Assembly (NCBI GenBank): GCA_001785615.1
Contig: MFUG01000016.1
Span: 13,752 to 77,751 of the forward strand
Direction of reading: 5' to 3'
DNA: 64,000 bases
Origin: Candidatus Nomurabacteria bacterium RIFCSPHIGHO2_02_FULL_42_19
Lineage (GTDB): Bacteria; Patescibacteriota; Minisyncoccia; Phycocordibacterales; UBA9973
Below, piece after piece: positions 19,358 through 27,769 of the stretch. Every line of letters starts with the position of its first letter. Within the stretch, counting starts at the first letter, position 1. The position numbers and the translations under genes were made by a program. The notes beneath the pieces are model-generated. The model was not told where the DNA came from. It saw only the letters and a program-made list of their open reading frames with translations, and searched no databases.

Positions 19358-20041
19358 CTATGAAATAAGTGTCCCGGCAAATTTTTCTCCGTTTAGATAT
19401 TTTGCCAAGTTATCAATCGGCTTGCCGTTCATGATTACAACTTCCATACCCCCTTTCTCAGCTGTTTCGGAAGCCGTAGGGTCAAATGGAGAATTTAATC
19501 CCGAAGTCCACTCTTTTGGAATTATTTTTCGGTAGTCCGCCCAAGAAATTTTTTCAATCTTCTTTGCAGAAGGATTTGTTTTTGGGTCAGCATCATATAC
19601 GTAATCAATATTTGAAAGATTGATAATCTTTTTCGCGCCAACCGTCTTTGCCGCCAAAACGGAATCCCAATCAGTACTGTGTCCGGGTTCATAAGCAGAA
19701 CCGATTATTATTGGCTTATCGAAAGACAATTTAAGAGATAAGTTGGAAATGACTTTCCGGTTTGCGGTTTCTCCGAAAATAACACGCAGTAATTCAGCAT
19801 TTAACTTCAAAGAAGCGATGCCTATCCAGTCCAGATCTTCGCTCGTAGGAGTGGAAAGTTCCCTGGCTACTTCTTGATATTTTCTGCAGATTTTCCCCCC
19901 GCCCGTTATAATCAAGAACTTTTTTCCTTTCTCAACATGTGAAAGAATTAATTTCTTAAAATTTTTTAGAAAATCCGTATCTATGCTCTCCGGTATAATC
20001 AGCGACCCGCCCAATGAAATTACTATTATTTCTTCTTTCAT
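19358..20041 (-). CDS. pyrH: amino-acid-kinase family protein, probably archaeal-type UMP kinase
   Basis: IVISLGGSLI...ITGGG pattern, 227 aa. Sits between the adk and cmk nucleotide kinases. Confidence 0.55.
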   Translation of the reverse strand: MKEEIIVISLGGSLIIPESIDTDFLKNFKKLILSHVEKGKKFLIITGGGKICRKYQEVARELSTPTSEDLDWIGIASLKLNAELLRVIFGETANRKVISNLSLKLSFDKPIIIGSAYEPGHSTDWDSVLAAKTVGAKKIINLSNIDYVYDADPKTNPSAKKIEKISWADYRKIIPKEWTSGLNSPFDPTASETAEKGGMEVVIMNGKPIDNLAKYLNGEKFAGTLIS

Positions 20042-20042
20042 A

Positions 20043-20630
20043 TTAAAAATTTAACGCCTTTATTATATCTTTATGCACGTCCTCTACCGTCTGTTCCCCA
20101 TTGATAGTAAAAATTTGATATCCTGGTTTATTTTTAAAATAATTCATAGCTGGAATCACATTATTTTTATATTCCTCAAACCTCTTAGCCAAGCCCTCGG
20201 GGGTATCATCGTGTCGGCCACGCGCTAAAGTGCGTTTCATCGCCTTTTCTTCCGATAACTCAATAAAAATTATTTTTATATCATCATGCTGATAAAATTT
20301 CATCATGGCTTCGAACACTTTTGACTGCTCAACGGTCCTCGGGTAGCCATCTACGATTAGGTGTTTTTCCGGGGAGATTTTAGAACTTAAGAGATCAGCC
20401 ACAATGGCGTTGGCAAAAAAGTCATCCACCAACCCCCCGCGGTGCATTTTCTCATGCAGAAGTTTGCCGGCATAGCTTCCGGACTCAAGAATCGTTCGAA
20501 ATCCTTCCCCGGTACCCGCATAGACGCACTCCCTGCCGTCTTTCTTTGAAAGGTATTCTCTTAGAAGCTTTACCTGGGTCCCCTTCCCGGATCCCACTGT
20601 TCCGAAAAATACAAATGTCTTGCCGTGCAT
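20043..20630 (-). CDS. adk: adenylate kinase (likely start at internal Met MHGKTFVFFG)
   Basis: P-loop GTVGSGKGTQ, DGYPRT and RxDD motifs. The track ORF extends to 20666 but the conserved N-terminus begins at the ATG at 20628-20630. Confidence 0.85.
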   Translation of the reverse strand: MHGKTFVFFGTVGSGKGTQVKLLREYLSKKDGRECVYAGTGEGFRTILESGSYAGKLLHEKMHRGGLVDDFFANAIVADLLSSKISPEKHLIVDGYPRTVEQSKVFEAMMKFYQHDDIKIIFIELSEEKAMKRTLARGRHDDTPEGLAKRFEEYKNNVIPAMNYFKNKPGYQIFTINGEQTVEDVHKDIIKALNF

Positions 20631-20690
20631 ATGCCTAAGAATAGCGAATTTGTGATATAAAATCAAATATGTTTTAATTAAGATAAGTTA

Positions 20691-21257
20691 ATGAAAAAAC
20701 AAATCATAACCATAAGCGGGATCCCTGGTAGCGGTAAATCTAGCACCTCTGATTTAGTGGCCAAGAAACTTGGCTTCAAACGATTTTCTTCAGGAGATTT
20801 TTTTAGAGAAATCGGGTTGGAATTAGAAATTTCTATTAATGATGTTTCTAAAAGAGCTGAAATTGACCCAACGATAGACCAAAGAACAGATGCTGAAATA
20901 AAAAAGCTGGGTGGTTCTGAAAAAATTGTTATCGATTCTCGCTTGGCATTTCATTGGATACCGGAATCATTTAAGGTGTATTTGGACCTACCGCCAGAAG
21001 TGGCCAAAGGAAGAATTTTGAATAACTTAAAAGAAAATCCTTTACGCAAAGAAAGTGAAAATGCAGAAACACACGAGGAGGTTTATGAGAAAATAATCCA
21101 TCGCCTAGAAAGCGAAAAAAAGAGATACAAAGAGCTGTACGGGGTAGACCATACTAAAAAAGAAAACTTCAATTTGGTGATAGACACAAACAAAAATAAC
21201 CTGGAGCAGGTTGCGGACATCATCGTGTCAGAATATAAAAAGTGGCTAACTAAATAA
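20691..21257 (+). CDS. cmk: cytidylate kinase (archaeal/short type)
   Basis: ITISGIPGSGKSS P-loop, 188 aa. The last 13 codons lie inside a 40-bp sequence that is duplicated 684 bp downstream. Confidence 0.7.
   Translation: MKKQIITISGIPGSGKSSTSDLVAKKLGFKRFSSGDFFREIGLELEISINDVSKRAEIDPTIDQRTDAEIKKLGGSEKIVIDSRLAFHWIPESFKVYLDLPPEVAKGRILNNLKENPLRKESENAETHEEVYEKIIHRLESEKKRYKELYGVDHTKKENFNLVIDTNKNNLEQVADIIVSEYKKWLTK
21209..21248. repeat. 40-bp direct repeat, left copy (cmk 3' end)
   Basis: ggttgcggacatcatcgtgtcagaatataaaaagtggcta is identical to 21933-21972. Confidence 0.9.
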
Positions 21258-21278
21258 AGTAGCTTTTTTGAAATTCAT

Positions 21279-21310
21279 ACGTGAATTCTAGCATATGCTA
21301 GAATTCACGT
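21279..21310. repeat. 32-bp perfect palindrome acgtgaattctagcatatgctagaattcacgt
   Basis: Equals its own reverse complement. An imperfect copy lies at 21885-21915 overlapping the start of the 21352-21900 gene. Confidence 0.9.
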
Positions 21311-21351
21311 AGATACTTTTATCATTGAGTATGTAAATCTAGTGAGTAGTT

Positions 21352-21900
21352 TTAGAGACCAAAATGATCTTTTAGCTTTTTATCATCCAAAACTTTGCTT
21401 ACTTCTAAAATCTCAATGTGTTTTCGTACGCCGAAAAAGTCTGCCACAAAGAGCATCTCCCCTTCACAAGGATATGGGTATACCCAGGTGCTTTTTTGAA
21501 ATTGCATAAATCCTAAGTCCTTTAATTTCCACCTGAAGGCCTCTCGCGCTTTTTTAAATCTGATGGGCAGATCATACATCACGATACGCCATTTGCCATC
21601 CCATTTACTCTGCTCTTTTATCACAATTTCATCAATAAATATCTTGCGCAGTTTATTTTCTCCTTTTTCTGTAAGAGTATAAAAATCCTTTTGTTCTCTT
21701 TTCACACGTCTCACAAATTTATAACGCCTGAGACCACCCAAAACTCTCTGCGCTTCTTTATCGCGATATGACAATTTCTCTCCAAGAGCGATAGCGCACA
21801 AGAAACTATGCGCGAGATTCAATCCTTCCCCGCCAGCGCTAAATACTTTCTTAAGCTTAATCAAATGTTCCCGTTTAACCATATACGTGAATTCTAGCAT
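21352..21900 (-). CDS. PaaX-like regulator (wHTH N-terminus + PaaX-C/Cas2-like C-terminal domain); probable start at second Met (21882)
   Basis: C-terminal SKWDGKWRIVMYDLPIRFKKAREAFRWKLKDLGFMQFQKSTWVYP fits the PaaX C-domain / Cas2-like pattern W.G.W..v.YD.p...R...R..L...GF..lQ.SvW. N-terminal KFVRRVKREQKDFYTLTEKGENKL looks like a winged helix. First 6 codons are encoded by the palindrome itself. Confidence 0.55.
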   Translation of the reverse strand: MLEFTYMVKREHLIKLKKVFSAGGEGLNLAHSFLCAIALGEKLSYRDKEAQRVLGGLRRYKFVRRVKREQKDFYTLTEKGENKLRKIFIDEIVIKEQSKWDGKWRIVMYDLPIRFKKAREAFRWKLKDLGFMQFQKSTWVYPYPCEGEMLFVADFFGVRKHIEILEVSKVLDDKKLKDHFGL

Positions 21901-21915
21901 ATGCTAATTCTCACG
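21885..21915. promoter_or_regulatory. imperfect copy of the 32-bp palindrome overlapping the regulator gene start (candidate operator)
   Basis: acgtgaattctagcatatgcta-attctcacg differs from the perfect copy by 1 indel and 2 substitutions. Confidence 0.4.
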
Positions 21916-21932
21916 ACAAGGGTGATTAGGCG

Positions 21933-21972
21933 GGTTGCGGACATCATCGTGTCAGAATATAAAAAGTGGCTA
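21933..21972. repeat. 40-bp direct repeat, right copy
   Basis: Identical to 21209-21248. In the cmk frame it reads ..EYKKWLEN* ending on a stop overlapping the secY stop, i.e. the presumptive ancestral cmk 3' end. Confidence 0.9.
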
Positions 21973-21977
21973 GAAAA

Positions 21978-23249
21978 TTAATACTCCCGCATAGAGACCT
22001 GAGCATCTATTTTTTTGATCAGGTCTAGAACTACGGAGACGACGATGAGAAGCGCGGTGCCACCGAGCGCGATAGCGGTGATGCCGGTAACCGCGCGCAT
22101 GATGAGCGGCAGAATGGCAATGAGGCCCAAGAAAACCGCTCCGAGCATAGTGATGCGGCCCAGGACTTTGGAAATATAATCGGAAGTTGAAGCCCCCGGG
22201 CGAGTGCCTGGAATAAAGGCGCCGTTTTTCTGTAAATTTGTGGAAAGCGCTTCCGGATCAAAAGTTACGGCGGTGTAGAAATAAGTAAAGAGAAAAACCA
22301 AAATAAAATAGAGCACCGCATAGAGCACAGAGGTCTGCGAGAATGAGACCAAAACGCTGGAAATCTTGACGATAATGGGATTACTAAATTTGGCCAAAAA
22401 AGTACCAATCATCTGCGGAAAAAGCAGAATAGAAAGGGCGAAGATTATCGGGATAACTCCGGCTTGATTTACCCGCAGTGGTAAATAGGTAGAGCCACCA
22501 CCATAGATCTTAAGCCCCCTCACCCGTTTGGCATAGGTAACCGGGATAGGGCGTTCTGCTTCAGTGACGATGACTACTCCGGCGATAACGACAGCGCCCA
22601 CGGCAATGAACAAGAGCAATAAAGGAACCTGGGAAGCGTCAAAAGCAAATATAAGCTGCCCAACTTCCGCTGGAATCCCGGCGACAATACCAGCAAAAAT
22701 TATAAGGGAAACGCCGTTGCCGATACCAAACTCGGACATCAGCTCGCCAATCCACATCAGGAATATAGCCCCGGCCACGACGATAATTAAATTAGTAACT
22801 CTGTCAAAAGCGGTCAAATTCACTAAAATACTCTGGCTTTCCAAAAGAGCTAAAAGAGAAAATCCCTGAATCGCGGCCAAGGGCACTGTCAGGAGCCGGG
22901 AATATTGGGTAAATCTCTTTCGGCCGGCCTCGCCCTCTTCGTGATAAATCTTCTTTAGCGCTGGAACCATAATAGTTAAAAGCTGCATGATGATGGAGCT
23001 GGTGATGTAGGGACCGACCCCGAGCATGATGATGGAAAGATTGGAAAGTCCGCCACCGGAAAAAATATTCAAAATGCCGAAAAATTGGTTGTTGGAGAGA
23101 AATCGGTTTAAGGCAAGAGTGTCAATACCTGGGATAGGAATAGCGGCCAGCAAACGAAAAACGGCTAATGCCAAAAGGACGAAAAGGACCCTTCTGCGCA
23201 AGGTATTGTCAGTCCAGACCAATTTAACTTTATTCCAAAAATTTTGCAT
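21978..23249 (-). CDS. secY: preprotein translocase subunit SecY
   Basis: 10-TM protein of 423 aa with SecY signature regions. Position after rplO. Confidence 0.95.
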   Translation of the reverse strand: MQNFWNKVKLVWTDNTLRRRVLFVLLALAVFRLLAAIPIPGIDTLALNRFLSNNQFFGILNIFSGGGLSNLSIIMLGVGPYITSSIIMQLLTIMVPALKKIYHEEGEAGRKRFTQYSRLLTVPLAAIQGFSLLALLESQSILVNLTAFDRVTNLIIVVAGAIFLMWIGELMSEFGIGNGVSLIIFAGIVAGIPAEVGQLIFAFDASQVPLLLLFIAVGAVVIAGVVIVTEAERPIPVTYAKRVRGLKIYGGGSTYLPLRVNQAGVIPIIFALSILLFPQMIGTFLAKFSNPIIVKISSVLVSFSQTSVLYAVLYFILVFLFTYFYTAVTFDPEALSTNLQKNGAFIPGTRPGASTSDYISKVLGRITMLGAVFLGLIAILPLIMRAVTGITAIALGGTALLIVVSVVLDLIKKIDAQVSMREY

Positions 23250-23252
23250 CTT

Positions 23253-23567
23253 TTATTTTATTTTGATTTTTTTCCCTTTAATACCCAAGCGCTTCCGGAT
23301 GGCAGAAAACTTTTCCCGCTTGCCATCTTTCTCGGCAACAAGTTTATCTTTACGGATGACCAGAGGTCGGTCTATTGACTTGAAACTATACCCGCGGTTT
23401 TTCGGCAACTTCTTTATAATATCACGAAGTTCCGGGCGACGCTTGTTGCCGGCGCGAGCCGTCTGCCCTTTGCCGCCGCGGCCGGAGGTCTTGGCATGCT
23501 TGCCGCCGCGACCCACAGTACGGTCCTTTTTATTTTTATGTTGTCTTTTTAAGTTATTTATCTGCAT
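23253..23567 (-). CDS. rplO: 50S ribosomal protein L15 (short form)
   Basis: GRGGKHAKTSGRGGKGQTARAG...KKLPKNRGY matches the L15 N-terminal G-rich motif. Confidence 0.8.
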   Translation of the reverse strand: MQINNLKRQHKNKKDRTVGRGGKHAKTSGRGGKGQTARAGNKRRPELRDIIKKLPKNRGYSFKSIDRPLVIRKDKLVAEKDGKREKFSAIRKRLGIKGKKIKIK

Positions 23568-23574
23568 AAATTAT

Positions 23575-24147
23575 TTAACTTTTAACTTCTTTTTCTGCGT
23601 CCGCGATTTCGTTCTGGATTGGTTTGGAATATTTGGTGGAAAAAACAGAAAGAGCCGACATCACTGCTTTCGCATTATTTAATTTATTTTTGGTGCCGGA
23701 CAAAATTTTCCCCGTAACATCTTTAAGGCCGGCTAACTTCACAATGTCCCGAACGACTGACCCGGCTACCAATCCGCGACCGCGGTTCGGCATCAATACC
23801 ACCAACGCACTGCCAAATTTAGCTTTTACTTCATAGGGAATAGAAGTGTTCTTGGTAAGTTTTAGGCGAACCATATTTTTCTTGGCATTGCGAAGCGCTT
23901 TGTTGATGGCGAGCGATGTGTCCCCCGCTTTGCCAAGGCCCAGTCCAATAGAGCCCTTTTTGTCTCCGGCCACCAGAGCCACGCTGAAAGAAAATCGGCG
24001 CCCGCCAGCCACCACGCGGGTTACTCGACGAATACTTAAAATTTTCTGGTCAAATTCCGGCTTCGGTCGATTGAAAGATGACCCTCTCCGGCCGCTACTC
24101 CTTTTTTCTCGGATGCCTGTATTTTCTTTTACGTTTTTCTTTTCCAT
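23575..24147 (-). CDS. rpsE: 30S ribosomal protein S5
   Basis: RVTRVVAGGRRFSFSVALVAGDKKGSIGLGLGKA and the C-terminal domain. Confidence 0.95.
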   Translation of the reverse strand: MEKKNVKENTGIREKRSSGRRGSSFNRPKPEFDQKILSIRRVTRVVAGGRRFSFSVALVAGDKKGSIGLGLGKAGDTSLAINKALRNAKKNMVRLKLTKNTSIPYEVKAKFGSALVVLMPNRGRGLVAGSVVRDIVKLAGLKDVTGKILSGTKNKLNNAKAVMSALSVFSTKYSKPIQNEIADAEKEVKS

Positions 24148-24163
24148 ATTTTTTTTATGCTAA

Positions 24164-24505
24164 TTAGAATTTCAGCCCAGCAGCCCGGGCCTCATCGGCT
24201 ACTAATTTTATACGCCCGGTATATTTGAAACCATTCCGGTCAAAGACCACTTTGTCTATTTTGGCGGTCCTGCACACCCCGGCTATCATCTTACCCACTT
24301 CTTTAGCTCGTTCAAGCTTGGTACCTTTTTTTATTTTTAGATCGCTTGCTTCCGCTAGGGTTTTCATTTTCATATCGTCAATTACCTGCGCGTAAATGAA
24401 TTTGTTGGAACGAAAAACAGAAAGACGTGGCCGCTCTTTAGTGCCGACGATCTTGGCTCGGATCTTCGCCTTTAGTCGTATTCTTTTGTCAGTTTTGTTT
24501 TGCAT
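24164..24505 (-). CDS. rplR: 50S ribosomal protein L18
   Basis: RPRLSVFRSNKFIYAQVIDD... Confidence 0.95.
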   Translation of the reverse strand: MQNKTDKRIRLKAKIRAKIVGTKERPRLSVFRSNKFIYAQVIDDMKMKTLAEASDLKIKKGTKLERAKEVGKMIAGVCRTAKIDKVVFDRNGFKYTGRIKLVADEARAAGLKF

Positions 24506-24596
24506 AAATAAATATACGAATATGCGAATTATACTAATCTGCGAATTATTCGAATGTATTTGTAAATTTGTATCATTTGTATATTCGTATGTTAAT
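24506..24596. repeat. AT-rich intergenic spacer with tacgaat / cgaattattcgaat palindromic motifs (family copy A)
   Basis: Shares atacgaatat...cgaattattcgaatNtatttgtaNatttgtat with 25131-25213. Similar motifs at 30897-30960 and 34614-34670. Confidence 0.6.
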
Positions 24597-25130
24597 CTAG
24601 GCGGTTTTCTTGCCTTGCTTGCGCCTGATTACTTCACCCTCATAACGCATGCCCTTGCCTTTATATGGCTCTGGCTTCTTTAGGGCTCGAATAGAGGCCG
24701 AAAAACTTCCTACCAATTCTTTATCCGCGCCGGTTATCGTAATATTGTTTTTATCAGCCGTGGCAGTGATTGTATCCGGAATTTTTACCACTACTGGATG
24801 GGAAAATCCTAAAGCGAAATGGAACTCTTTGCCTTTGATTTCCGACTTGAATCCGACTCCTTCCAATATCAATTTCTTTGAGTATGGTTTTTCTACGCCT
24901 TCAATCATGTTCTTGATGTGTGAAGCATAAGTGCCCCAGAGTGACTTTGAAAATTTGTCGTTTCGCTTGGGTAGGAGAGTAATTATTTTGTCAGTTATGG
25001 TGATAACGATGTCGTCTCTGAAATTTTTCGTCAGTGTTCCCTTTGGCCCGACAACAGTAAAGACCCCGCTTACCTGGCTTACTTTCACTCCCGGGGTTAT
25101 TTGTATTTCTTGTTTTCCAATTTTAGACAT
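24597..25130 (-). CDS. rplF: 50S ribosomal protein L6
   Basis: MSKIGKQEIQITPGVKVSQVSGVFTVVGPKGTL. Confidence 0.95.
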   Translation of the reverse strand: MSKIGKQEIQITPGVKVSQVSGVFTVVGPKGTLTKNFRDDIVITITDKIITLLPKRNDKFSKSLWGTYASHIKNMIEGVEKPYSKKLILEGVGFKSEIKGKEFHFALGFSHPVVVKIPDTITATADKNNITITGADKELVGSFSASIRALKKPEPYKGKGMRYEGEVIRRKQGKKTA

Positions 25131-25213
25131 AAAAGATACGAATATACTAATTTACTAATGATACGAATTATTCGAATATATTTGTAGATTTGTATACATT
25201 CGCATACTGGTAT
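25131..25213. repeat. AT-rich intergenic spacer, family copy B
   Basis: See 24506-24596. Confidence 0.6.
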
Positions 25214-25600
25214 CTACCATAATTTGAATAATGCTTCCCCTCCGACCTGTTCACGCCTGGCATCCTTGCCTGATAAAATTCCCTTGGGTGTGGAAAGTAT
25301 CAGAAGCCCGGTTCCATTTTTAACTTTGTGAATGTCCTTCACGCCAAAATAAACGCGCCTGGATTGCTTAGAAATTCTTTCCGCTTCCGTAATTTTCGGC
25401 TTTTTATCAACATAAACCAGCCCTACTTCCAGCAACGGCTGGCCTTTTTTAACTTTTTTGGAAATTTCCGACACATAGCCCTCCTTTTTCAGACATTCTA
25501 AAATAGCATTTTTTAATTTGGAATGCGGAACGGCAATAGTGGCCTTGCCTACTAGACCCGCATTCTTCATCATTATTATCATGTTGGCTATTGAATCCAC
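25214..25600 (-). CDS. rpsH: 30S ribosomal protein S8
   Basis: MDSIANMIIMMKNAGLVGK...GEALFKLW. Confidence 0.95.
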   Translation of the reverse strand: MDSIANMIIMMKNAGLVGKATIAVPHSKLKNAILECLKKEGYVSEISKKVKKGQPLLEVGLVYVDKKPKITEAERISKQSRRVYFGVKDIHKVKNGTGLLILSTPKGILSGKDARREQVGGEALFKLW

Positions 25601-25630
25601 TTTTTTAATTCATAATTCTTAATTTTTAAT

Positions 25631-25816
25631 TTACCATGAAGATTTCCTGACTCCCGGCAACATTCCTTCATTGGCTAGTTCGCGAAAGCAAATACGGCAA
25701 ATGCCAAAGTCCCGCATGAAGCCATTGCCCCGACCACAGCGAAAACATCGGTTTTTCTGCCGAGTGCTAAACTTCGGTTTCTTTTTGCTTCTGGCGACGA
25801 CTGATGTTTTAGCCAT
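25631..25816 (-). CDS. rpsZ: 30S ribosomal protein S14 type Z (zinc-binding)
   Basis: 61 aa, CFRCGRGNGFMRDFGICRIC, four Cys. Confidence 0.95.
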   Translation of the reverse strand: MAKTSVVARSKKKPKFSTRQKNRCFRCGRGNGFMRDFGICRICFRELANEGMLPGVRKSSW

Positions 25817-26028
25817 AAATTAAGGAATGTTAATGACTATAGTTTATGAGCATCCCGCCATGGCGGGGAGCCATAAATAATGAGGGAATCTTGCCCCGCC
25901 TGAAATAGGCGGGTGAACTTCAGTAATATCGCATTTCTTTTCTTATTCCCTCAATCACTTGAAAAAACAAGGAGAAAAATGGATTAACCAAAACATTATT
26001 CCCTTAGCTAGATACTAGCAAAAAGTAG

Positions 26029-26223
26029 CTAAATAGTCAATTTTTTCTTCTTCTTTGTCTTCGCGTCAATTATCATAAACCCTCGCGGAATGCGCTTCAC
26101 TATTACCCTTTGCTTTTCTCGCCAGCCGATTTGTCGAATCATGGCAATGGGAATTATCACCGAAAAGGACTTCGATCTCCCGACTCTGGTTATTTTCCTA
26201 ATTGAATTTATTGGTCTGGCCAT
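26029..26223 (-). CDS. AbrB/MazE/SpoVT-family (swapped-hairpin) DNA-binding protein
   Basis: IRKITRVGRSKSFSVIIPIAMIRQIGWREKQRVIVKRIPRGFMIIDAK parallels the AbrB N-domain (GIVRKVDELGRVVIPIELRRTLGI.EKD.LEIYVDDEKIIL). Confidence 0.6.
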   Translation of the reverse strand: MARPINSIRKITRVGRSKSFSVIIPIAMIRQIGWREKQRVIVKRIPRGFMIIDAKTKKKKKLTI

Positions 26224-26248
26224 AACTCATGAGTTAACTCAGTAATTA
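26222..26248. repeat. 27-bp direct repeat copy 1 (contains 14-bp palindrome taactcatgagtta)
   Basis: ataactcatgagttaactcagtaatta is identical to 26880-26906. Confidence 0.9.
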
Positions 26249-26253
26249 AATAA

Positions 26254-26577
26254 TTATGCTTTTACTGGCTTTAGTTCTATTTCTTCCTTCTTTAGATTAA
26301 ATTGTACTACAAAATTATCGAAAAATCCCTTCTGACCTACAATCCCATAAGGCATCCTTTTCCCTGAAATGTCTGGCATAAAACCTGCTTCAATTTTATG
26401 AGCCCACCCTCCAACTTCAATCTCTACCTCGTGGAGATAATACAAAGAAGCTTTACCTCCAACACCAAACACCTCACGTGGTTTACCCTTAGGGATATCA
26501 AGACCAAGCGCTTCTCCAGCTTCCGAATGGAAAATACAAATATCAGCCCCAGAATCTACTAGCACTTCATAACGCAA
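26254..26577 (-). CDS. retropepsin-like (clan AA) aspartic protease
   Basis: EVLVDSGADICIF (hh-D-S/T-G-A-D active-site motif) and C-terminal GIVGQKGFFDNFVVQFNL flap/dimerisation-like segment. 107 aa. Confidence 0.65.
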   Translation of the reverse strand: MRYEVLVDSGADICIFHSEAGEALGLDIPKGKPREVFGVGGKASLYYLHEVEIEVGGWAHKIEAGFMPDISGKRMPYGIVGQKGFFDNFVVQFNLKKEEIELKPVKA

Positions 26578-26651
26578 AGATTGAGAATTTAATTTTAATT
26601 TAATTTCTATAACCGGCCTAAGTGTTGAACCGTATTTCTTATAACTGAATT

Positions 26652-26846
26652 TTATATGCTCCCGACATACGTATCTAGGGTTTCTGGCATTCGGCTAAAA
26701 ATAGGAGATTGGTACCCTTTTTCTTGTGCTTGATGTTTGGCTTCTTTAAGGGTTTTGCCACTTCCAACAACAGTTTCTTCGTCGTCTGCGAGAGCAACCC
26801 AAAGACCCTTATATTTATTGAATATTTTTGTCCAATCTTTTACCAT
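26652..26846 (-). CDS. DUF5678-like small protein
   Basis: KYKGLWVALADDEETVVGSGKTLKEAKHQAQEKGYQSPIFSRMP matches the DUF5678 pattern (KG.WVAl.D..vv..g.tl.e......ekG...P.i..vP). Confidence 0.5.
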   Translation of the reverse strand: MVKDWTKIFNKYKGLWVALADDEETVVGSGKTLKEAKHQAQEKGYQSPIFSRMPETLDTYVGSI

Positions 26847-26879
26847 ATCTTAATTATATCAAATTAGGAGGTAATAACA

Positions 26880-26906
26880 ATAACTCATGAGTTAACTCAG
26901 TAATTA
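26880..26906. repeat. 27-bp direct repeat copy 2 (overlaps the rplE stop codon)
   Basis: Identical to 26222-26248. Confidence 0.9.
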
Positions 26907-27542
26907 CTCCGCGGCTGGGGCGGTAAGGGGAACTTCTGCCTTTGGTTTGCGCTTGCGGGCTTTTTTTGCTTTCTGCTCTATGGTTGCTTGTTCTTCCTGT
27001 TTCTTGAAAGGAACACCCAGGAGCTCAAAGAAGGAGTGGCCTTCTTTTTTATTCTTAGCGGTAGAAACAAGAGTGATAGATAGGCCGAAAACGTCTTTAA
27101 TGTCTTCATCGGCTGTTTCCGGGAAAATAGTATGCTCTTTAATGCCGAGGGTAAGGTTGCCTACATTATCCACCGCGCTCGGCGGAATACCGCGGAAGTC
27201 CTTGGTGCGAGGGATAGCAATATTTATTAATTTCTCAAGAAAGGCGTACATCCTTTTCTCGCGGAGAGTCACTACTACCCCGATAGGGTCGCCCTGGCGG
27301 ACCTTGAAGGAGGCGATGGACTTCTTGGCGCCACGGAGAGCCGCTTTCTGTCCGGTTATTTTCGCCAAGCGGTCTGCGATCGTTTCATTTTTATTTTTAT
27401 CTTTTTTTACCGCAGTACCGGTACCGACATTCAGCACCATTTTCACCATTCTAGGCGCGGCCATGGCGTTTTTATAATGAAAAACATCTTTCATCTTCTC
27501 AAACACGCTTGTTTCTTTTTCTTTTACGGTCAAAAGTTTCAT
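26904..27542 (-). CDS. rplE: 50S ribosomal protein L5 (with K/A-rich C-terminal extension)
   Basis: MKLLTVKEKETSVFEKMKDVFHYKNAMAAPRMVKMVLNVGTG. Confidence 0.95.
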   Translation of the reverse strand: MKLLTVKEKETSVFEKMKDVFHYKNAMAAPRMVKMVLNVGTGTAVKKDKNKNETIADRLAKITGQKAALRGAKKSIASFKVRQGDPIGVVVTLREKRMYAFLEKLINIAIPRTKDFRGIPPSAVDNVGNLTLGIKEHTIFPETADEDIKDVFGLSITLVSTAKNKKEGHSFFELLGVPFKKQEEQATIEQKAKKARKRKPKAEVPLTAPAAE

Positions 27543-27544
27543 AT

Positions 27545-27763
27545 TTAATTTATCTTTTTAACATTTGATACATGAATCGGCATGGCGATATTTAGCATTT
27601 GCCCTTTTTCGTTGGTCTTTCTGGCTCGCTGGTGTTTCTTAGACATATTCAATCCCTCCACGATTACCTTATCCGCCCTGACCAAAACGCGAACAACTTT
27701 CCCTTTTTTGCCTTTATCTTTACCGGCTATCGCTATTACATTGTCTCCTTTTTTTATTTTCAT
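27545..27763 (-). CDS. rplX: 50S ribosomal protein L24
   Basis: [26 protein letters not shown]. Confidence 0.95.
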
Positions 27764-27769
27764 AGGTAT

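Follow-up and report, generated by a model that had tools for sequence, protein, structure and literature searches.

The DNA analysed here is a stretch of 64,000 nucleotides (henceforth referred to as 'the window') from contig MFUG01000016.1 of Candidatus Nomurabacteria bacterium RIFCSPHIGHO2_02_FULL_42_19, a Nomurabacteria/Paceibacteria-like member of the Patescibacteria; it carries a minus-strand spc-type ribosomal operon. The spc operon is normally among the most rigid bacterial gene orders. In the window, its genes rplE and rpsN are separated by a gap of 1,087 bp that contains three small minus-strand open reading frames (ORFs), encoding, in operon order, a DUF5678 protein, a retropepsin-like aspartic protease and an AbrB-like protein, as well as two copies of a 27-bp direct repeat (Table 1). 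An earlier reading of this DNA (henceforth referred to as the 'original prediction') had reported that three non-ribosomal genes interrupt rplE-rpsN, had assigned them to these families, and had noted the DSG catalytic motif of the protease and an exact 27-bp repeat with a 14-bp palindrome, one copy of which lies at the AbrB-like start and the other over the rplE stop codon. Our analysis bears out each of these observations, the families by Pfam profile matches. It leads to a different view of which genes belong together: the comparative evidence indicates that the real module is the DUF5678 gene with the protease gene, and that the AbrB-like gene is a separate resident of the gap.

Three small genes and a direct repeat between rplE and rpsN

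All three ORFs score above the respective Pfam gathering thresholds and have hundreds of homologues. The window protease ORF matches PF13650 (Asp_protease_2) at 33.9 bits (cutoff 24.3), and its full-length homologue P0001 matches the same profile at 30.5 bits and RVP at 20.9 bits (cutoff 20.7). The PF04014 match of the AbrB-like protein covers residues 18-59, and the protein has a basic KTKKKKK tail. The 27-bp repeat, ATAACTCATGAGTTAACTCAGTAATTA (TAATTACTGAGTTAACTCATGAGTTAT in operon orientation), occurs exactly twice in the 64 kb; no other copy was found with up to 3 mismatches, and 0 were expected from 100 shuffles. The 14-bp palindrome TAACTCATGAGTTA within it likewise has only two occurrences in the window, even when 2 mismatches are allowed. 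No compositional anomaly of the insert was detected (GC 0.32-0.42, against ~0.40 around it).

For the population from which the window derives, 17 public metagenome contigs (from two overlapping look-ups) of Rifle-type aquifer samples were available from ENA, JGI and Logan. Both repeat copies are present in every contig that spans both positions, and the locus structure is not an assembly artefact, as it is identical in independent ENA, JGI and Logan assemblies. It could be argued that the repeat reflects chance similarity or misassembly and that the ORFs are spurious, given that the ORFs are short and that public gene calls lack the AbrB ORF and rpsN. The absence of any expected chance repeat, the recurrence of the same structure in independent assemblies and the Pfam scores already refute this explanation. 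In the public gene calls for contigs of this population (L001-L006 and L109-L112; L numbers denote loci throughout) the AbrB-like gene and rpsN are missed, with an antisense 51-amino-acid (aa) ORF called instead, and the protease starts at an internal TTG and is shortened to 107 aa, a point that matters for annotation.

Table 1. Features of the rplE-rpsN region (window coordinates).
Feature	Position	Strand	Basis or remark
rplE (ribosomal protein L5)	26904..27542	-	Pfam Ribosomal_L5 and L5_C
Upstream 27-bp repeat copy	26880..26906	-	Duplicated AbrB leader motif, bounding the inserted pair on the left
Promoter of the DUF5678-protease pair	26853..26880	-	TTGTTA, 16-nt spacer, TG-extended TATAAT
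DUF5678 gene, 64 aa	26652..26846	-	PF18929, 35.7 bits (cutoff 23.2)
Retropepsin-like aspartic protease gene, full length, 133 codons	26254..26655	-	PF13650, translations, homologue alignment, model
Downstream 27-bp repeat copy	26222..26248	-	Native leader motif of the AbrB-like gene
AbrB/MazE (SpoVT-AbrB) fold gene, 64 aa	26029..26223	-	PF04014, 28.1 bits (cutoff 24.7)
Promoter-like site (TTGACT, 17 nt, TAGTAT with TG)	26012..26040	-	Overlaps the AbrB 3' end
Structured AbrB-rpsN spacer, two GC-rich hairpins (CCCGCC/GGCGGG)	25840..25960	-	RNA fold
rpsN (short zinc-type S14), downstream edge of the slot	25631..25816	-	PF00253 Ribosomal_S14, 1.2e-23

The protease gene is always paired with a DUF5678 gene

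A scan of 185,579 species genomes for relatives of the protease returned 213 loci, of which 80 were analysed. By their organism titles these genomes are overwhelmingly metagenome-assembled genomes of Patescibacteria, or Candidate Phyla Radiation (CPR); a few have been binned to Bacteroidota or Gammaproteobacteria. Directly upstream of the protease gene there is a DUF5678 ORF in 80/80 loci, and the two genes share an ATGA overlap in 57 of the 80; PF18929 was recognised in 118 of 120 DUF5678 homologues among the matches listed. The original prediction had instead proposed the AbrB-like gene and the protease as a possible module. Only 4 of the 80 loci have an AbrB homologue after the protease (one of them a weak match), and of the 14 loci obtained in a metagenome scan with the AbrB protein (L091-L104) at least 8 carry AbrB without the pair, which speaks against that pairing.

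The pair also has a promoter of its own. The best promoter-like site in the region (10/12 positions plus TG) has its -35 element TTGTTA at 26880-26875 and its -10 element TATAAT at 26858-26853. As the -10 element ends only 6 nt before the DUF5678 ATG, the mRNA is predicted to be leaderless. Consistent with this, TGnTATAAT is kept at -15 to -7 from the ATG across 79 related loci, where there is no Shine-Dalgarno sequence. Because of this conserved promoter of its own, we regard the pair as an expression-autonomous unit of ~620-700 bp. The structural model of the DUF5678 protein (mean predicted local distance difference test, pLDDT, 90) has an alpha-beta-beta-alpha-beta arrangement and, at its C-terminus, a conserved tail (P..L..YVG) in extended conformation. 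No structural neighbour reached significance, and the model lacks a ribbon-helix-helix (RHH), helix-turn-helix (HTH) or AbrB DNA-binding fold. We found no papers on DUF5678 function.

The protease has a retropepsin fold and has lost its start codon in this population

The AlphaFold2 model of the protease (pLDDT 89.7) has the retropepsin fold, and its Foldseek matches include HIV-1, HIV-2 and SIV protease (E from 3e-5) and Rickettsia APRc (TMq 0.68). The catalytic motif reads VDSGAD, and its D, S, G, A and D do not vary among 32 aligned homologues. At E <=1e-10 the family comprises 643 clusters (50% identity), nearly all of them bare single-domain proteins of 130-150 aa. An NCBIfam search gave nothing for either the protease or the DUF5678 protein, and sequence searches of the PDB gave no match for the pair proteins. 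A phage origin of the pair was considered and rejected, since no relative of the protease was found in 2.9 M viral contigs, the repeat motif had no match in viral contigs and PHROG gave no match.

Homologues of the protease are ~132 aa long and begin MKF.YK.YG, and in the window the homologous frame stays open as far as 26655. Of 80 relatives, 74 have ATG as the aligned start codon; at the corresponding position (26655-26653) the window has ATA, which none of these relatives has. This single G-to-A change turns the ATGA of the overlap with the DUF5678 stop codon in relatives (junction ...TATGAAATT) into ATAA. The next canonical start, a TTG at 26577, would cost 26 residues, including four N-terminal beta-strands of the predicted fold, and the window thus appears to lack an intact translatable protease gene. 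The span of 26254-26577 given in the original prediction corresponds to the mechanical ORF from this TTG. The ATA allele is present in every population contig that spans the site, the remainder of the ORF is intact, and both nucleotide differences in strain variant L007 read as synonymous. We infer that the protease is crippled in this population. A gag-pro-like -1 frameshift fusing the two proteins was considered, as the protease is read in the -1 frame relative to the DUF5678 gene; it was rejected, since the relatives have their own ATG within the ATGA overlap and no slippery heptamer is found there.

The pair is found in many contexts, often between duplicated host sequences

Among the immediate neighbours of the pair, 117 of 151 are singletons. 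Significant direct repeats surround the pair in ~15 of the 80 loci; they are 20-129 bp long and 84-100% identical, and their sequence is different each time. The upstream copy stops shortly before the promoter, 19-68 nt from the ATG, and 0-20 nt separate the protease stop codon from the downstream copy. These repeats are duplicated ends of adjacent host genes, namely the 5' end of the downstream gene (L040, L057, L065), the 3' end of the upstream gene with its stop codon (L036, L058, L059) or the 3' end of a convergent gene (L048, L062, L072). Third codon positions account for 38 of 60 differences between the flank copies (P 0.003 against an estimated ~45% for a neutrally decaying relic, with heterogeneity among loci), a bias that points to recombination in homologous flanks or to integration of a circle; some of the relic copies may derive from a diverged orthologue carried in with the cassette. 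In the distant genomes L024, L034 and L044 the protease is 61-67% identical to that of the window, compared with 39-61% for ribosomal proteins. Overall, these comparisons indicate that the pair is horizontally mobile. It does not resemble a transposon or insertion sequence: the unit consists of a promoter and two genes only, the flanking duplications vary from 20 to 129 bp, and its ends show nothing conserved beyond the -10 box and the stop codon.

About 18 of the 80 loci lie in translation operons (rplE-rpsN 9, secY-adk 3, rpsG or tuf 5, rplU 1). Since orthologous insertions do not count as independent events, this bias is no more than suggestive; it hints that the pair either prefers translation operons or spreads better where the flanks are highly conserved. 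In other CPR genomes the pair was seen between secY and adk (L016, L025, L090), after rpsG (L020, L069) and upstream of tuf (L028, L038, L046). Two copies of the pair lie 3 kb apart in a single-cell Patescibacteria genome (L085, 3785-4405 and 7105-7523), with the second protease truncated. Presence/absence polymorphism within the window's own population was also considered and rejected, since the pair, the ATA allele and both repeats are present in every contig spanning the sites.

The rplE-rpsN gap behaves as a slot for small cassettes

In relatives, the rplE-rpsN gap measures 1.1-2.9 kb and contains varying combinations of genes: the pair; a second, diverged pair (L092, L095, L096); the AbrB-like gene; HicB-like and HicA genes (L104; truncated in L101); a MazF/PemK gene (L044); a gene with a SocA-Panacea antitoxin domain (L091); and a bPH_2 membrane protein gene (L093). 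In the second pair (L092, 1736-2383; L096, 2043-2654; and L095), a small DUF5678-like protein is combined with a retropepsin-like protein of 139-140 aa that has the motif IDSGTD and is 28-29% identical to the window protease. Like the window pair it lies upstream of the motif and the AbrB gene; its genes do not overlap, and its protease weakly matches PADLOC PDC-M52B (9e-4). We conclude that the rplE-rpsN junction very probably is a slot, or hot spot, for small accessory cassettes in this lineage, and, given the HicA/HicB-like, MazF/PemK and SocA-Panacea genes found there, the pair shares this slot with bona fide toxin-antitoxin components. The view that the three window genes arrived as one inserted cassette does not agree with these data, as the gap is a variable multi-cassette island in the lineage. 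The original prediction had also named an outcome that would count against it, namely relatives in which these genes are a conserved part of the operon with no repeats. This was found in part: the pair occupies the site in 9 genome loci, while its neighbours there are variable and the repeats may be present or absent.

Several further observations concern this slot. Repeated pairs of a small membrane protein gene and a type IV pilin-like (N_methyl) gene were seen in the gap (L105, 1874-2742 and 3546-4317; L043, 4663-6421; also L013, L015 and L092), and pilin genes are unexpected inside a ribosomal operon. The rplE product of the window has a C-terminal extension of ~25 aa (…QEEQATIEQKAKKARKRKPKAEVPLTAPAAE) that is without counterpart in relatives ending ...PFKKE(EE). 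In strain variant L008 (870-930), a 58-nt patch in the rplE tail has 22 mismatches (38%) in a contig that is otherwise identical. The encoded peptide remains similar, and the end of the patch coincides exactly with the motif TAA, which marks a recombination boundary. The rplE tail of L008 looks like a recombination mosaic.

The AbrB-like gene and its palindromic leader

The distribution of the AbrB-like gene indicates that it is a separate resident of the slot. It occurs without an upstream protease in L093/94, L101 and L104, all in the rplE-rpsN slot, and in L098-100, L102 and L103, the last of which lies between the genes gap and pgk. In the window it is followed by a 212-nt non-coding spacer and then rpsN, with no toxin gene; in relatives the next gene is rpsN, a pilin-type gene, a trmH-like gene or pgk. 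Because no toxin gene follows, the AbrB-like protein is not a MazE-type antitoxin at this locus, and against the NCBIfam profile doc_partner it scores 14 bits (cutoff 55.9). It resembles the swapped-hairpin proteins AbrB, MazE and SpoVT in passing PF04014 and in having a palindromic leader that co-varies with its N-terminus, as would be expected of an autoregulated operator. It differs from them in its lysine-rich tail, in the absence of a cognate toxin downstream and in its habitual position immediately upstream of rpsN in the spc operon. Outside the ribosomal slot, in L098 (1503-2389) and L099, the motif and AbrB gene precede an overlapping ORF of 70 aa and a gene for a nucleotidyltransferase of the AbiEii/DUF6036 type, and the AbrB gene there may belong to a toxin-antitoxin-like trio.

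The two repeat copies bracket the DUF5678 and protease genes only (26249-26879) and leave the AbrB-like gene outside. The first three bases of the upstream copy are the rplE stop codon TAA (26904-26906), and the downstream copy begins 5 nt after the protease stop codon and ends with the AT of the AbrB ATG. The motif (degenerate form TTRYTGAGNWRRCTCATGAGTT) has a 22-nt core, TTACTGAGTTAACTCATGAGTT. Among the 14 distinct AbrB loci that were tabulated, this core directly abuts the AbrB ATG in 9, from several genomic contexts, and in most of the remaining loci it is found 5-72 nt upstream. Its identity to the window core is 86-100%, compared with 35-58% at AbrB third codon positions, and it is thus under selection. 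L104 and L103 have altered AbrB N-termini together with different yet symmetric palindromes (TATCTCTAGAGATA, and CTACGTAGTTAACTACGTAG around the same GTTAAC), which is the pattern expected of an operator that co-evolves with a dimeric DNA binder. That the motif serves as the operator of the AbrB-like protein, as the original prediction suggested for the palindrome, is therefore plausible, and we put it forward tentatively; otherwise it would be a translation-initiation element of the AbrB gene. The repeat itself is not simply two operators. The comparisons point instead to the AbrB leader having been duplicated on both sides of an inserted two-gene cassette. A role in RNA structure was tried and is unlikely, since the folds of the 27-bp motif are no more stable than those of shuffled sequences (z +0.15 and -0.73) and Rfam gave no match.

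Direct-orientation copies of the motif bound different contents in different genomes. They flank the pair (family 1) in the window, in L043 and in L011, the second pair (family 2) in L092, where they are identical over 28-31 bp including the genome-specific AAGTAATAA, and the Panacea gene in L091, a close relative that shares the rplE extension. In L043, three copies separate rplE, the pair, a block of AbrB and pilin genes, and the rpsN promoter. L092 and L091 have an exact homologous upstream copy, L043 and L011 a degenerate one and L013, L015 and L096 none; in L011, L013, L015 and L043 the protease stop codon is the TAA of the motif. For the perfect copies in the window and L092 we estimate the probability of 23/23 matches at ~1e-6 under a neutral identity of ~55%. 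This excludes neutral retention, so that gene conversion with the selected downstream copy as donor, selection on both copies or recurrent recombination at the motif is needed.

Some observations favour the three-gene cassette of the original prediction, in which the AbrB-like protein would regulate the protease or be its antitoxin and the palindromes would be operators: the perfect copies need an explanation, the upstream copy ends at the -35 element of the pair promoter, and the order pair-motif-AbrB recurs in the window, L011, L013/L097 and L043 and, with the second pair, in L092, L095 and L096. We nevertheless consider this model quite unlikely, because 76 of the 80 pairs have no AbrB gene while DUF5678 is always there, because at least 8 loci have AbrB and its motif but no protease, because the distance between the upstream motif and the promoter differs between the window and L092, and because the upstream copy has decayed or is missing in the five relatives named above.

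The same motif copies could alternatively be att-like sites, with the slot being an integron-like array of cassettes, each a promoter with toxin-antitoxin-type genes, that are moved by a recombinase encoded elsewhere, perhaps with the AbrB-like protein as an accessory factor. Four cassette contents (including the AbrB and pilin block of L043) are bounded by direct-orientation copies at this one slot, four kinds of upstream gene have their TAA at the same motif position, and imperfect inverted arms of 10-13 bp surround a GTTAAC at the centre of the motif; in addition, copies within a genome are identical together with genome-specific flanks (27 bp in the window, 28-31 bp in L092) and the hyper-divergent patch of L008 ends exactly at the motif. 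Set against this, the island has no recombinase gene and a search of the 64-kb window for the tyrosine-recombinase signature by regular expression, which is a weak test, was negative; the motif accompanies AbrB even where no cassette array is evident (L102, L103) and has no match in viral contigs; and the pair is elsewhere flanked by duplicated arbitrary host sequence and hence has no need of the motif for insertion. Taken together, the att-like reading is improbable, if somewhat less so than the three-gene cassette. Its fullest version, an att site in an integron-like spc-operon slot, an AbrB-like site binder and a DUF5678-retropepsin pair that would be the first aspartic-protease toxin-antitoxin or defence system, restrained by a 'pro-peptide' acting in trans, is slightly more improbable again. 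The locus is like core-gene hot spots, integrons and Xer dif/pdif sites in that a fixed slot receives varied cassettes with imperfect-palindrome direct repeats at their boundaries. The differences are that no integrase or recombinase is linked, that the cassettes have their own promoters, that the boundary motif doubles as the leader of a resident gene, and that the pair elsewhere lies between duplicated host gene ends and not at a specific site.

A toxin-antitoxin-like selfish cassette as the favoured explanation

The explanation we favour is that the DUF5678 and protease genes form a mobile toxin-antitoxin- or abortive-infection-like selfish module that landed in the ribosomal-operon slot, a cassette hot spot, and whose protease is now crippled. 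We assign this reading as a whole a probability of about 0.55. The probabilities of the alternatives overlap in part with it and are not meant to sum to one. Within it, the structural and evolutionary description of the locus is held with high confidence, and the toxin-antitoxin-like function of the pair has rather less than an even chance of being correct. The DUF5678 protein would bind and restrain the dimeric protease, possibly with its conserved C-terminal tail in the substrate cleft, and the protease, once freed, would damage the cell. In relatives the two genes are translationally coupled via the ATGA overlap. In the window population, the ATA start would cause the putative toxin to be translated poorly or not at all, with the putative antidote intact. 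The ancestral state of the site was probably rplE-TAA-leader-ATG(AbrB), the motif being the rplE-AbrB spacer and AbrB leader. Entry of the cassette would have duplicated its target, the leader, in the same way as flanks were duplicated at other insertion sites, either by single-crossover integration of a circle with one leader copy or by fill-in of a staggered break.

The toxin-antitoxin-like function is supported by the architecture of the pair, its autonomy and mobility, its toxin-antitoxin neighbourhood, the weak similarity to PDC-M08B and PDC-M52B, and its route of decay. As in type II toxin-antitoxin systems such as HicAB, MazEF and those with Panacea domains, the genes are small, adjacent and co-oriented, the smaller comes first, their translation is coupled through a 4-nt ATGA overlap, and they have their own promoter, a patchy, horizontally spread distribution and a shared slot. 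Decay by loss of the second gene's start codon, with the first gene remaining intact, is the typical route. The pair differs from these systems in that the putative toxin is a clan AA aspartic protease and the putative antitoxin has no RHH, HTH or AbrB fold. We know of no clan AA aspartic protease toxin that has been described, and our literature search found no retropepsin-type toxin-antitoxin system.

Several results weigh against this explanation. Neither protein matches a toxin-antitoxin family in Pfam, NCBIfam or PADLOC. The protease has a weak match to the PADLOC candidate-defence model PDC-M08B (E 7e-7 to 1.5e-5, profile positions ~10-82 of 127), which covers the catalytic half only, and DUF5678 has no match to the PDC-M08A models. 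The fold of the putative antitoxin is atypical, and the protease is unusually well conserved for a toxin, which could mean that it has a conserved cellular substrate. The ATA codon may still permit low-level coupled initiation. A simple target-duplication model does not on its own explain the perfect motif copies in the window and L092. Finally, the public contigs of this population contained neither an empty site nor a circular junction, and mobility at this site is therefore historical.

Another possibility is that the pair serves the cell as a non-selfish proteolytic system acting on a substrate related to translation, with DUF5678 as adaptor, substrate or precursor peptide; this would account for its location in ribosomal and translation operons. 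A precedent exists in RimB of the Pseudomonas RimABK system, a small cytoplasmic retropepsin-like endopeptidase that acts with partner proteins and trims the poly-Glu tails of ribosomal protein S6 (PMC11957791), and the sequence conservation is very high, with ~18 of the 80 loci in translation operons. We regard this possibility as unlikely, about as much so as the three-gene cassette. The distribution is patchy (213 matches among 185,579 species genomes) and most loci lie in unrelated contexts; the operon loci are not independent, some being orthologous insertions, and conserved flanking genes could equally favour spread by homologous recombination. Moreover, the loss of the start codon is fixed in the population and the protease is thus dispensable there. 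The pair is like RimB in comprising a small bacterial retropepsin-like protease with a partner protein, and unlike it in being mobile and patchy and in having no RimK (ATP-grasp) or RimA neighbour, DUF5678 being the sole conserved neighbour across the 80 loci.

Two further groups of proteins invite comparison with the selfish pair that we favour. The PADLOC candidates PDC-M08 and PDC-M52 are two-gene systems as well, with a B subunit of ~127-139 aa; the matches to them are weak and mostly confined to the catalytic half, the candidates are unvalidated, and we found no paper on PDC-M08. The best bacterial structural match is APRc (RC1339) of Rickettsia conorii (PDB 5c9d and 5c9f), with a template modelling (TM) score of 0.65-0.68 over ~131 residues at 16-17% identity. 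APRc is reported to be membrane-associated and autoprocessing (PMC4140852). By contrast, the CPR protein consists of a single bare domain of 132 aa and has its own small partner gene.

Toxin-antitoxin-type mobile pairs, hot spots between core genes and AbrB autoregulators are all known kinds of element. The specific pair is uncharacterised, and an effector chemistry of this kind would be new among such modules. It is also unusual for the spc operon to contain a slot that takes several cassettes and has a conserved palindromic leader at its boundaries. If the pair is an addiction or defence module, it would combine a new effector chemistry (a clan AA aspartic protease) with a new antidote fold, and would provide a function for one DUF family and for ~640 clusters of orphan bacterial 'retroviral-type' proteases. 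The comparisons further suggest that selfish cassettes with promoters of their own are tolerated in the CPR spc operon and enter it time and again (at rplE-rpsN, secY-adk and rpsG-tuf), which bears on how tiny genomes exchange DNA: the conserved flanks could serve as recombination anchors across species.

Other features of the ribosomal operon

The promoter-like site that overlaps the AbrB 3' end probably restarts transcription of the operon after the island, and a homologous TTGACT...TA..AT site lies upstream of rpsN in L101, L096 and L043. The AbrB-rpsN spacer folds with -42.7 kcal/mol (z = -3.9, with 0/200 shuffles as stable). Rfam gave nothing at E <=1 in 25000-28000, nor at gathering score in 20000-36000. 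The spacer could be an element like those termed repetitive extragenic palindromic (REP), a terminator or insulator, or an rpsN leader. One of its hairpins is replaced in strain variant L007. Elsewhere in the window, a 670-bp gap between rplB and rpsS (30897-31566) has no convincing ORF and no Rfam match at gathering score; it includes a patch of 63% GC at ~31000-31400 in a genome of ~40% GC, and may represent another insertion or a structured RNA inside the S10/spc cluster.

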